From a virus (lineage: Duplodnaviria; Caudoviricetes): DNA of 64,000 nucleotides. The stretch covers positions 32,001-96,000 of IMG/VR virus record IMGVR_UViG_3300028805_000057, one strand, 5' to 3'. This document shows positions 14,783 to 19,632 of this stretch, in pieces. The notes beneath the pieces are model-generated. The model was not told the DNA's origin and did no database searches. It saw only the letters and a program-made list of their open reading frames with translations. The translations under genes and the position numbers were made by a program. Each line of letters begins with the position of its first letter. Position 1 is the stretch's first letter.

Positions 14783-14802
14783 TATTTAAGTAACACCAAA
14801 AA

Positions 14803-14838
14803 GGGGGATCAGAGAAATCTGGTCCTCTAAATTTTTTA
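14803..14838 (+). terminator. Intrinsic terminator
   Basis: Identical hairpin to 8355. Confidence 0.8.
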
Positions 14839-14859
14839 TAGAAAGGAGTTGACAGTTAG

Positions 14860-15540
14860 TTGGTTGAGAAAGTGCAAGGCGAAGTTGTGAGCATTGGTAA
14901 TAAGAATGTTAAAGATGAAACATTAGCACCAGTTATCTCAAATGCAGCAACAGTAAAAAAGACAAGTGGATTAAAGAAATTATGGAGAGGATTCTTTGCA
15001 GAAGACTTTAAGACAGTTCGCGGTAGTGTAATGGAGACAGTTATTAAGCCAAGTATTAAGTCAGGTATAGCAAATGCAATCACAAGTGCAGTATATATGT
15101 GGTTATTTGGTAAAAATGGTTATAGTAATGCTCCAGGAGGAATATTTAGACCATTATTGTCAGGTGGTGCAGTATCTTATAATGGTATCACAAGAATCCA
15201 AAATGGTCAAGTTGTAACAAGTCCTAAGGTAAGTATTGGTAATGATGCAAATTTTGGAAGGTATACGGCAGCTGAAGTATATGATCCTGAATATATAAGA
15301 TATGCAAGTTATCAAGATGCAGTAAATGTTCTTGAAGGATTAAGAGAACGTATTGGTAAGTATCAGGTTGCAACAGTAAAGAACTTATTTGATTTAAGTG
15401 GTCAAATTGGATATGAAATGGTTCTTCAGAATTGGGGTTGGTATGGTATTGAATGGTATCGTATTGTTCCAGTAGGAGATGGTACATGGATTCTTAGATT
15501 GCCACAGCCGACAGCTTTGAATGGAACTATGACTAAATAA
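14860..15540 (+). CDS. Conserved phage protein
   Basis: SD AAAGGAG, TTG start; C-terminal A..VL..L...I.KY..ATV..LFDL.G...WGW...LP.P. Confidence 0.7.
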   Translation: MVEKVQGEVVSIGNKNVKDETLAPVISNAATVKKTSGLKKLWRGFFAEDFKTVRGSVMETVIKPSIKSGIANAITSAVYMWLFGKNGYSNAPGGIFRPLLSGGAVSYNGITRIQNGQVVTSPKVSIGNDANFGRYTAAEVYDPEYIRYASYQDAVNVLEGLRERIGKYQVATVKNLFDLSGQIGYEMVLQNWGWYGIEWYRIVPVGDGTWILRLPQPTALNGTMTK

Positions 15541-16852: not shown

Positions 16853-17821
16853 ATGGGAAAGTTTGCAGATTTTCGTGAGAATTTTATGCATAATTTTAAC
16901 GATATGAGAAATAATCTTGAGTCTAGAACAGGATTATTAACAGGTATCGGTGTTGTTGCAGGTTTAGCAGGAACTGTATTAGCTTGTAGAGCAACATTAA
17001 AGATTGCAAATAAAGCAGAAGAGCATAAGAAACTTGTAGATGACACAAAAGCAAATTGTACAGAATTAGCTCTTGATGATAAGGCAACACATAAGGAAGT
17101 AATGAAGGCATATCGTCATATTGGTGTTGATTATGTAAGACAGTATTGGCCTGCAGTAGGTTTATTAGCTGTTGGTTATGGATTGATTATTAGAGCACAT
17201 TGTATTGAAGTTGCAAAGAATGAAGCTTTGATGACAGCATATATCGGTCTTGAGCAGCTGTTTAATAAGTATCGTACAAGAGTTGCAGAGCAGGTTGGAG
17301 AAGAAAGAGAAGCTCAGATCTATAAGCAAGCAAAGATTGATCAGGCAGAAGAGAATAAGATTGGCCAGTATTCCGGCGAATTTAGAAATGGTTCATATTT
17401 ATTGTTTAATGATTCTTGTAGAGATTATCAGGAAGGTTGTCCTCAGGCAAATGATTTCTTGATTAGTACAATTGAGCAAGAATTAAATATGAAATTTGAC
17501 ACATTCACACCAGTTTATTTGAATGATGTAATGAGAGCATGTGGTCATGAAGAAGTAAATGGTGGATGGAATTGGGTTAAAGCAAAAGGTTTGACTGATA
17601 AGATTGATTTTAAGATTCATGATGTAGACTTCAATCCTGAATTTGCAAAAGGATATGGATTTGTAAAAGGTCAGGAACCGATTGCAAAGTTATATCTTGA
17701 TGGTTTCGTTCATGTATCAAAACTTTATAGTGCAGAATATCGTCAGTATCTGAAGAAAGATAAAGCTGATGGTGGTATTATGGGTGGCGAGATTGGAAGA
17801 GATCAGGTTTTAATTGGTTAA
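16853..17821 (+). CDS. DUF6353-like protein (second member)
   Basis: GVVAGLAGTVLACRATLK, YWPAV, F.KYR.RV...GEE.E, VYLNDV. Confidence 0.75.
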   Translation: MGKFADFRENFMHNFNDMRNNLESRTGLLTGIGVVAGLAGTVLACRATLKIANKAEEHKKLVDDTKANCTELALDDKATHKEVMKAYRHIGVDYVRQYWPAVGLLAVGYGLIIRAHCIEVAKNEALMTAYIGLEQLFNKYRTRVAEQVGEEREAQIYKQAKIDQAEENKIGQYSGEFRNGSYLLFNDSCRDYQEGCPQANDFLISTIEQELNMKFDTFTPVYLNDVMRACGHEEVNGGWNWVKAKGLTDKIDFKIHDVDFNPEFAKGYGFVKGQEPIAKLYLDGFVHVSKLYSAEYRQYLKKDKADGGIMGGEIGRDQVLIG

Positions 17822-17918
17822 ATGATATTTGGGGTTTCAGTAGCTCGTTACCCAAGATATCTTTAACATAGAGGAGCTCGGCGGGTCTGATTAACCACTC
17901 GGCTCGCTGAGTTTCTTT

Positions 17919-18056
17919 TATTTAATTTTATAATAGGGCTCCTAAGAGAAAAATATACCCCAAAAATAAAATACTCATAAAAAATAGACTCCTGGTTTTA
18001 TGACTGTTCAAAAATTACACTTATCACTCTTAGGAGTCCTGTTATGAAATTAAATA
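17919..18056 (+). ncRNA. Long hairpin RNA A: 30-bp stem, 78-nt loop antisense to an SD+AUG region
   Basis: Arms 17919-17948 and 18027-18056; all 3 arm differences are G.U on the + strand. Confidence 0.65.
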
Positions 18057-18071
18057 GGAGGACTACAAATA

Positions 18072-18239
18072 ATGGAAGAAAGTACTGCAACAAAGATAAT
18101 TGATAAATATATAGAAATGTATGATGAAATTATAAATGATAAAACATCTACAAGAATTCGTAAATCAATTGCTGAAAGTAATAAGAATTTATTAGAGAAT
18201 GTAAAAGGAGATATAATAAATGCTGAAGAAGGTAATTAA
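18072..18239 (+). CDS. Hypothetical protein (55 aa)
   Basis: SD AGGAGG. Confidence 0.5.
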   Translation: MEESTATKIIDKYIEMYDEIINDKTSTRIRKSIAESNKNLLENVKGDIINAEEGN

Positions 18240-18357
18240 GTATTGGTTTAGATTTACTTTAATAATAAATATTTTATCTTGGATAACCGGTTTAGCAAAT
18301 AATTTAAAAGAAAATAAAGATATTGTTAATTTATATTATGATGATATAGAAATTTAA
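18220..18357 (+). CDS. Small membrane peptide (45 aa)
   Basis: SD AAGGAG; WFRFTLIINILSWITGL. Confidence 0.45.
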   Translation: MLKKVIKYWFRFTLIINILSWITGLANNLKENKDIVNLYYDDIEI

Positions 18358-18365
18358 ATATGTAT

Positions 18366-18489
18366 TCTAAGTCTCATAGTAGGGCTCTTAGATTATCCGT
18401 CTTTTTGATGCTTGTGGTCTTTAATGACATGTGGACTCCTTTCTATGATAATATTTTTCCTATCTAAGGGCCCCATTATGAGACTTAGA
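18366..18489 (+). ncRNA. Long hairpin RNA B: 28-bp stem, 68-nt loop antisense to an SD+AUG region
   Basis: Arms 18366-18393 and 18462-18489; 2 of 3 differences are G.U on the + strand. Confidence 0.65.
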
Positions 18490-18510
18490 GATTATATTTG
18501 GAGGTAATTT

Positions 18511-19632
18511 ATGAATACACCTTTAGTAACAGTAATAATGCAAAATTATAATACAAATAAAGATATTCTTGACATTGCAATTAATTCAGTAATTAATCAA
18601 ACATTTAATGACTTTGCTTTTATTTTTATTGATGATTGGTCCACAGATTATGATGTTTCTTCATTTTTTGCTGAAATTGAGACTAAATGGAAGAATAAAA
18701 GGCCTGATATGCCGATACATCTTATAAAGAAACCACAAAATGGTCCTTTAGATGAAAGAGATCATAATCATGGTCATTCATTTTGTAGGAATTGGGGATT
18801 GGATTTAGTAAAAACAGCAAAGATATCTGATTATGTCTTTTTTATGGATTCAGATGATGAGATTATGCCTAATTGTCTTGAAATATTATGGTCAAAGATA
18901 GAGAAAGATCCTGAAGTTGAAATCAGTATAGGTAATTTTATAAGAGATGAAGTAAGATGGTGTCAGTTAAAGGATACTTATCATGATGCAGAAGTAAATG
19001 AAGGTACATTAGGTCCTCATGACAATAAGACTTATACAAATCTTGAAGCATTGGATATATTATGTGATCCTTATATGATTCCTGGTCATCATCCTACAAT
19101 GCCGAGTGTTGCTTTTTGTGCCACATGGAATAAGATATTTAAAGTAAGCCTTTTTGATAATGTCAGATTTCCTGATTATCGTACAAAAGATGATAACTTC
19201 ACAGCACATAGATTATTGTGGAATGCTAAGAAGATAGTTTTTACATTTGAGATAACCTACTTCTATCGTCCAGGTGGAAAGTTAGCAGACGCCAATCTCT
19301 ACAAGACAATGGATATAATAGATGCGCATCGAGATAGAGTTGAATTCTTTGAAAAGATATTTAACGTGTATGACAGAGAACACTATTATAATGAAAATAT
19401 TGACTTTTATAAAGAAGAATCTGAAATAAAGATATTCTACAATGAGTATTTAGTATTCTTGTATACTTTTATGAGAGTTATTGATGCTTCAAATGATAAC
19501 TTTAGAAAGAAACAACTTGCAAATTTATTAAATGAAAAACTTATTACTGAGTTATCTCATATAATATTAATCGATCCAAAATTTGTAAAAAGCGCGTATG
19601 AATTTGCAAGGAGGATTAGAAAAAATGAGTAA
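18511..19632 (+). CDS. Glycosyltransferase family 2 (GT-A)
   Basis: PLVTVIM..YN, IFIDDWSTD, RNWGL, YVFFMDSDD, WNKIFK..LF. Confidence 0.9.
   Translation: MNTPLVTVIMQNYNTNKDILDIAINSVINQTFNDFAFIFIDDWSTDYDVSSFFAEIETKWKNKRPDMPIHLIKKPQNGPLDERDHNHGHSFCRNWGLDLVKTAKISDYVFFMDSDDEIMPNCLEILWSKIEKDPEVEISIGNFIRDEVRWCQLKDTYHDAEVNEGTLGPHDNKTYTNLEALDILCDPYMIPGHHPTMPSVAFCATWNKIFKVSLFDNVRFPDYRTKDDNFTAHRLLWNAKKIVFTFEITYFYRPGGKLADANLYKTMDIIDAHRDRVEFFEKIFNVYDREHYYNENIDFYKEESEIKIFYNEYLVFLYTFMRVIDASNDNFRKKQLANLLNEKLITELSHIILIDPKFVKSAYEFARRIRKNE

Follow-up and report, generated by a model that had tools for sequence, protein, structure and literature searches.

Among the described systems closest to the hairpins reported here, the T4 genes e, soc, 49 and I-TevI carry short local helices that sequester the start region, and a late promoter located between the arms gives open transcripts (PMC3014915). 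In T7 early mRNA, RNase III sites such as R1.1 end in small loops and contain internal bubbles (PMC1540722), and rRNA processing stems provide a further RNase III comparison (PMC8708148). The c4 RNA of P1/P7 uses sequences in its loops to bind around a ribosome-binding site (PMC12197685). In T4-type phages, conserved motifs consisting of a promoter and a stem-loop (PeSLs) mediate gene shuffling (PMC2839356). In Neisseria, the Correia elements are units of ~100-155 nt with ~26-nt inverted repeats, which are transcribed, fold, are bound or cut by RNase III and alter the expression of their neighbours (PMC2649163).

Two long hairpins, A and B, in the genome of an uncultured phage resemble these systems in part. 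As in T4, a sense-strand helix in read-through transcripts is predicted to bury the Shine-Dalgarno (SD) sequence or start codon, with a probability of an unpaired SD, P(SD unpaired), of 0.01 for both hairpins when the full leader is folded. Unlike the T4 helices, the stems of this family comprise 21-41 bp and the loops 57-112 nt, an internal sigma-70-type promoter is not conserved, and about half of the homologues lack a buried SD. With RNase III hairpins they share long double-stranded stems between cistrons of a polycistronic phage mRNA, enclosing a segment that cleavage would release; they differ in their near-perfect stems and very large, variable loops enriched in anti-SD sequence. The c4 RNA of P1/P7 and the sar RNA of P22 likewise expose a loop complementary to the ribosome-binding site of a phage gene on a conserved scaffold with a varying targeting sequence (PMC12197685). 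However, the targets of c4 and sar are defined and conserved and their recognition loops are short, whereas here a significant target match is confined to one lineage (hairpin B, L018-B and L011) and the motif is missing from half of the family. PeSLs, too, are conserved intergenic motifs with GGG...CCC stems, located on either side of small non-essential genes within a hyperplastic region, a likeness that fits cassette exchange (PMC2839356, PMC4122927). They consist, however, of a sigma-70 promoter with a short terminator stem-loop and occur in many copies, while the present hairpins occur as two copies at one locus, lack a sigma-70 promoter and have stems ten times longer with a large loop; with no promoter enrichment, long stems and only two copies, membership of the PeSLs was rejected. 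Correia elements have a similar unit size and similar inverted repeats but are dispersed, mobile and present in hundreds of copies, in contrast to hairpins that are bound to a single locus and absent from the prokaryote genomes searched.

The window analysed is a stretch of 64,000 nt, bases 32001-96000 of a 147,894-bp IMG/VR record (genome G000), and its hairpins are labelled WIN. The window has about 31% G+C, and its + strand carries nearly all genes. At the locus, the DUF6353 gene is followed by two small hairpins, hairpin A and the 55-aa gene, and then by the 45-aa membrane-protein gene, hairpin B and the GtrB-like GT2 gene, with a GT1 gene further downstream (Table 1). The same region in relatives holds zero to two small genes and differing GT2 genes between the conserved DUF6353 and GT1 genes. 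The 55-aa gene recurs in L003, L018, L023 and L024, always downstream of an A-type hairpin. The 45-aa protein and its homologues in L003, L010-L019, L023 and L026 form a conserved family of 29-45-aa single-pass membrane proteins with an N-terminus like M-x-K-K-x-I-K-Y, whose genes always lie directly 5' of a B-type hairpin and, in most cases, of a GT2 gene; the family has no Pfam or PHROG match. A blastn search of the hairpin locus against a phage database gave no match, and tblastn of DUF6353 gave only distant matches, to actinophage and Faecalibacterium phage sequences.

Table 1. Features of the hairpin locus and of the candidate target of loop B (window coordinates).
Feature	Position	Strand	Details
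226-aa gene (phrog_4079), start region	14838..14862	+	TTG start at 14860; block ATAGAAAGGAGTTGACA at 14838-14854; candidate loop B target
DUF6353 (PF19880) gene	16853..17821	+	Conserved left anchor of the variable cassette region
Small hairpin	17824..17861	+	Directly 3' of the DUF6353 stop codon; predicted fold
Terminator-like GC-rich hairpin with U tract	17870..17918	+	U tract also forms the outermost 5' strand of hairpin A
Hairpin A core (A-type)	17919-17948 / 18027-18056 (arms)	+	Arms of 30 nt each; loop 17949-18026 (78 nt)
Loop A anti-start/anti-SD block	17976..17993	+	CAT 17976-17978; GACTCCT 17987-17993
55-aa gene	18072..18239	+	Without known family
45-aa single-pass membrane-protein gene	18220..18357	+	Stop codon separated by 7 nt from the hairpin B 5' arm
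Hairpin B core (B-type)	18365-18393 / 18462-18490 (arms)	+	Loop 18394-18461 (68 nt)
Loop B anti-start/anti-SD block	18428..18446	+	CAT 18428-18430; GACTCCTTTCTAT 18434-18446
GT2 glycosyltransferase gene (GtrB-like)	18511..19632	+	Led by hairpin B

No other inverted repeat in the 147,894-bp genome is as long as hairpin A or B. The stem of hairpin A contains 27 Watson-Crick pairs and three G.U pairs, confirming the original prediction of a 30-bp stem whose imperfections are all G.U on the + strand, and its RNA folds at -45.8 kcal/mol (z -8.6) on the + strand vs -35.3 on the - strand. Further G.U pairs lengthen it to 17913-18062 (5' arm 17913-17948, 3' arm 18027-18062), and in this lower stem the U tract pairs with the SD sequence GGAGG at 18057-18061. 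Hairpin B, with 25 Watson-Crick pairs, three G.U pairs and one A.C mismatch, folds at -47.5 kcal/mol (z -7.0) as + strand RNA and more weakly as - strand RNA; looser pairing stretches it to 18353-18502, into the SD sequence GGAGG at 18500-18504. The stem motif ATARTAGGGCTCYTA, predicted to be common to both hairpins, has exact copies at 17930 and 18376, and GACTCCT occurs in both loops as predicted (17987 in A, 18434 in B). The reverse complements of the loops read, as had been stated, as an SD, a spacer and an ATG opening 16- and 18-aa reading frames that end ALL-stop. The two smaller hairpins noticed upstream are also present (-39.6 kcal/mol, z -5.4), the second of them being terminator-like with a U tract.

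Related loci were fetched through the DUF6353 protein (>100 relatives). One IMG/VR genome (L003, also labelled G001, 135.7 kb) has homologous hairpins at both of the same positions, 18 further loci were added, and a curated set of 18 non-redundant hairpins from 12 distinct phage contigs was assembled. Homologous hairpins thus lie at the same place in 12 related contigs, with the stem and loop sizes given above, while the more distant relative L020 (51% identity) has no such hairpin. Among 13 aligned B-type hairpins, pairing covers 97.5% of the cells and 22 of the 28 stem pairs show changes on both sides, a level reached by 0 of 500 shuffles; slid registers gave 30-53% pairing. A covariance model built solely from B-type hairpins (R1) recovers hairpin A at an E-value of 8.6e-12 and its counterpart A' in L003 at 5.7e-11, which bears out the prediction of a conserved stem scaffold with variable loops. 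In two complete genomes the model finds exactly two copies each, solely at this locus.

The strand on which the structure forms is indicated by its imperfections. Over the 18 hairpins, read as + strand RNA, there are 454 Watson-Crick, 76 G.U, 8 A.C and 24 other pairs, and base composition predicts a G.U to A.C ratio of about 1.5 to 1. Because the imperfections are G.U on the + strand (76) rather than A.C (8), the sense-strand RNA is the folding molecule, as had been proposed; R1 also scores hairpin B at 96 bits on the + strand vs 49 bits on the - strand. The 21-41-bp stem is therefore the selected part and forms in sense-strand RNA. Searches against Rfam gave no family match, the sole gathering-level match in the window being a tRNA, and an E-value scan of 17700-18600 returned noise, mostly miRNA-precursor models far below their cut-offs. 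Exact A-type and B-type DNA patterns matched only the one relative in IMG/VR, and a scan of 185,579 prokaryote species genomes with hairpin DNA patterns gave no copy. The two hairpins are members of a new, clade-specific structured RNA family of a known general kind, and this conclusion is well supported.

The same data bear on whether the repeats act as DNA, whether as a recombination module that bounds cassettes in the manner of PeSLs, as a miniature inverted-repeat element (MITE), as an invertible switch or as an attC-like site. The region is variable, with its zero to two small genes and different GT2 genes between DUF6353 and GT1, and the small-gene cassette of WIN, L003, L018, L023, L012 and L026 has a pair of related hairpins, one on either side. 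Exchange of cassettes between phage lineages is evident. The hairpin B cassette (window 18365-18490) is almost identical to L018:4158-4310, and since the flanking DUF6353 proteins are only 74% identical, the sequences point to a recent exchange of this cassette between lineages. Nevertheless, a DNA-level role is quite improbable: the ratio of 76 G.U to 8 A.C shows that a single folded strand, rather than the duplex repeats, is under selection, the elements occur as two copies per genome at one locus and in none of 185,000 prokaryote genomes or other viral contigs, and CTCC keeps one orientation in all 13 loops that contain it, none being inverted. A MITE was rejected because no copy turned up in these prokaryote genomes, in addition to the two copies per phage genome at a single locus. 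An inverton or integron attC site was set aside with no match to a tyrosine or serine recombinase (PF00589, PF00239) in the phage genome and a single loop orientation, and a retron non-coding RNA with no match to a reverse transcriptase (PF00078).

Two further structures were seen beside the family hairpins of relatives. In L014 and L010 (L014:3936-4085, L010:4128-4277) a further long structured leader, unrelated to the first, stands before the GT2 gene (-45 kcal/mol and z -4.7 in L014) and is itself preceded by the 9-mer AAAGATATT, and both contigs carry the module CATGTGTGACTCCTTTCAATAAT outside the family hairpin. In L011 (3963-4062), the stretch that separates the hairpin from the GT2 start holds a ~50-nt unit (CAAAGTGAAAACTCCAGTCT...) twice in tandem.

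The placement of the hairpins relative to genes is regular. In 15 of the 18, the next start codon lies within about 30 nt 3' of the stem, and in all 12 B-type hairpins scored the 5' arm begins 2-18 nt past the stop codon of the conserved 29-45-aa membrane-protein gene; the base of a B-type stem therefore sets this stop codon beside the SD of the next gene. A-type hairpins come after the terminator, and G.U pairs join its U tract to the SD that serves the 55-aa gene. Fold calculations show, as a prediction, that both stems bury the downstream SD in this phage. P(SD unpaired) is predicted at or below 0.02 for WIN-A, WIN-B, L003-A, L018-A, L018-B and L026-1. The SD is predicted to be open in L003-B, L019, L026-2 and both L012 hairpins, so occlusion is not a family-wide property. 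Loop complementarity showed no preference for the hairpin's own downstream start region (p 0.99) or its own upstream one (p 0.45), and a specific pseudoknot between loop and SD was ruled out because of this lack of a cognate preference.

Our preferred reading, held with a little less than even confidence, is that the hairpins are cis-acting leader or intercistronic elements, or processing elements, of the sense-strand mRNA. The hairpins occupy leaders and intercistronic gaps within a variable cassette 3' of DUF6353 that comprises a small membrane protein, sometimes the 55-aa protein, and then a glycosyltransferase, and we infer that they act in cis on the expression of the flanking genes. The stem would keep the downstream start closed in read-through transcripts, and a ribosome that reaches the upstream stop codon, located on the stem base, and terminates there could open this start. 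Because its near-perfect double-stranded RNA exceeds two helical turns, the stem is also predicted to be a likely substrate of the host RNase III, which would set mRNA ends and stability. The T4 e, soc, 49 and I-TevI hairpins (PMC3014915) and RNase III sites of the T7 R1.1 kind (PMC1540722) are the nearest precedents for this reading. RNase III hairpins are expected to offer at least about 20 bp of double-stranded RNA on the transcribed strand between cistrons, and the stems here have 21-41 bp and lie in intergenic gaps; searches of the phage genome found no RNase III and no dsRNA-binding domain of its own.

A T4-like design, in which a late promoter lies inside the hairpin, is not supported, since no sigma-70-type promoter is conserved between the arms. 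Such promoters occur in 7 of 20 hairpins vs 4.3 expected, which is no enrichment, and a phage-specific promoter is possible. WIN-B does contain a sigma-70-type site (ATGACA-17-GATAAT), which is not conserved. Reading frames running through the hairpins on the + strand (e.g., 18360-18467, 35 aa) were likewise rejected as not conserved.

A candidate for a phage-specific promoter, or for another signal read on one strand, is the word AAAGATATT, of which the 147.9-kb genome has 95 copies on the + strand and 0 on the - strand; one-mismatch variants occur 3-24 times. Copies in the window include 18316-18324 (+), 15539, 23285 and 32088. Inside genes the word falls in each of the three reading frames. 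The 40 nt before gene starts hold about three times as many copies as expected, whereas few occur across the 70-110-kb structural block. The genome G001 has 82 copies, all on the coding strand, and a control word there occurs 6 and 5 times. Among the relatives, AAAGATATT abuts the 5' arm of B-type hairpins and, counted over the family, of 9 of 18 hairpins.

The preferred cis-acting reading leaves two properties of the loops without a role, namely the ten-fold enrichment of CTCC and the antisense SD and ATG in half of the loops. The loops contain CTCC at 9.8 per kb, vs 0.98 per kb genome-wide, and no GGAG. A strict minus-strand SD followed after 4-12 nt by ATG is found in 9 of 18 loops, vs 0.86 expected from dinucleotide shuffles. 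In B-type loops the anti-SD motif extends to RACTCCTTTCWAT, and the loop motif CUCCUUUCUAU equals what we take to be the 3' tail of Firmicute 16S rRNA. Between the WIN-A and L018-A loops, the parts conserved are the SD block and the start block; the alignment shows no conserved secondary structure within the loops. The register of anti-SD and anti-AUG that had been read from the two loops of this phage thus recurs well beyond expectation, but half of the homologues are without it, and A' of L003 has neither CTCC nor an antisense start.

These loop properties are what would be expected of a scaffolded antisense RNA, in which the stem serves as a scaffold for processing and stability and the loop displays a block of 20-30 nt against the SD and start codon of a target. 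Hairpin B would then shut off the phrog_4079 gene at 14860 once the cassette transcript accumulates, while different targets, perhaps mRNAs of the host, would be recognised by loop A and by the loops of other lineages. The c4 RNA of P1/P7 is a precedent (PMC12197685). However, loops that measure 57-112 nt and differ by indels among close relatives do not resemble known antisense recognition loops, the register is missing in half of them, and this explanation is unlikely.

Inspection by eye had found no perfect target in the window. The window does contain a near-target of loop B: the sequence ATAGAAAGGAGTnnACA at 14838-14854, in the start region of gene 14860, is complementary to loop B at 18430-18446, and the reverse complement of the loop contains ATAGAAAGGAGTccACA. 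Loop A has no target in its own genome by blastn-short or RNAduplex. The 12-mer ATAGAAAGGAGT occurs once per strand in the 148-kb genome, the + copy at 14838 and the - copy in loop B. Against the start region of the 14860 gene family, the B loop of L018 shows 26/33 identity (30/33 with wobble, z 6.4-7.5) and that of L011 22/33 (z 4.5-4.9). Loop B of the window phage matches its own gene 14860 at 21/33, with z 3.7 in local alignment but only 0.8 among 270 start regions. Its predicted duplex with 14860 (RNAduplex, -34.7 kcal/mol) is the best of 266 start regions, yet lies within the range of shuffled loops, and much of the shared block is simply a perfect extended SD. A bias of 9 to 0 towards wobble-compatible transitions between loop B and the target was not counted, because the GC skew of the genome predicts the same bias.

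In the other lineages, the loops show no match to the start region of their own phage's copy of phrog_4079, so that loop and start region do not covary there. The match of loop B to this start region is strong in L018 and L011 and weak genome-wide in the window phage. Matches in host genes, which had been suggested as targets, did not appear: an exact 21-nt seed search of 185,000 prokaryote genomes found nothing. The phrog_4079 start (window 14800-14862) is unusual in itself, with a TTG start kept as TTG or GTG in 10 relatives and an unusually strong, 12-nt perfect extended SD that combines with this weak start codon directly after a strong terminator.

The antisense blocks could instead be sense signals of the minus strand, the loop providing a ribosome-binding site and start for a tiny reading frame (16 and 18 aa in this phage) and the hairpin acting as a control of the type I toxin-antitoxin kind, as the original prediction offered as an alternative. 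On this strand, nine of the 18 loops combine a strong extended SD (AGAAAGGAG), preceded by an A/T-rich stretch, with an ATG at 5-11 nt, five B-type members read in frame to the same 5'-arm stop across a 21-nt indel, and the A peptide is hydrophobic. However, the minus-strand reading frames vary in length from 3 to 28 aa, are conserved in neither sequence nor frame and are absent from the other nine loops. The peptide MSILFLGYIFLLGALL corresponds to MFMRYFIT in the closest relative and to MTL-stop in L015, and all three substitutions between the WIN-B and L018-B frames are non-synonymous. The shared stop is not independent evidence of coding, because it results from the conserved YYA in the stem. 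Minus-strand sigma-70-type promoters occur in 3 of 20 hairpins vs 4.6 expected, and the stem imperfections favour the + strand. Expression of the minus strand is accordingly very improbable, and the peptide alternative fell with it.

Beyond a single target pair, the broadest claim would be a new class of phage regulatory RNA: a duplex scaffold in an mRNA leader, probably excised by RNase III, that silences chosen start regions through a loop copy of 20-30 nt of anti-SD and anti-start sequence, directed at phrog_4079 in the case of hairpin B and at host or competitor genes in others, with the loop being retargeted as cassettes move between phages. We regard this claim as rather unlikely. If the loops are antisense guides, the hairpins would be a modular, retargetable phage silencing RNA, and loop B (18430-18446) with 14838-14854 would be its candidate pair. 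The family itself is a structured RNA of a clade of large, uncultured gut or rumen phages, with no Rfam match and unusually clean covariation, and its architecture is unusual in that a stem of ~30 bp closes a large loop enriched in anti-ribosome-binding-site sequence. If it is cis-acting, it would provide an example from a Gram-positive-type phage of leader-hairpin control of surface-modification genes, here a GtrB-like glycosyltransferase.
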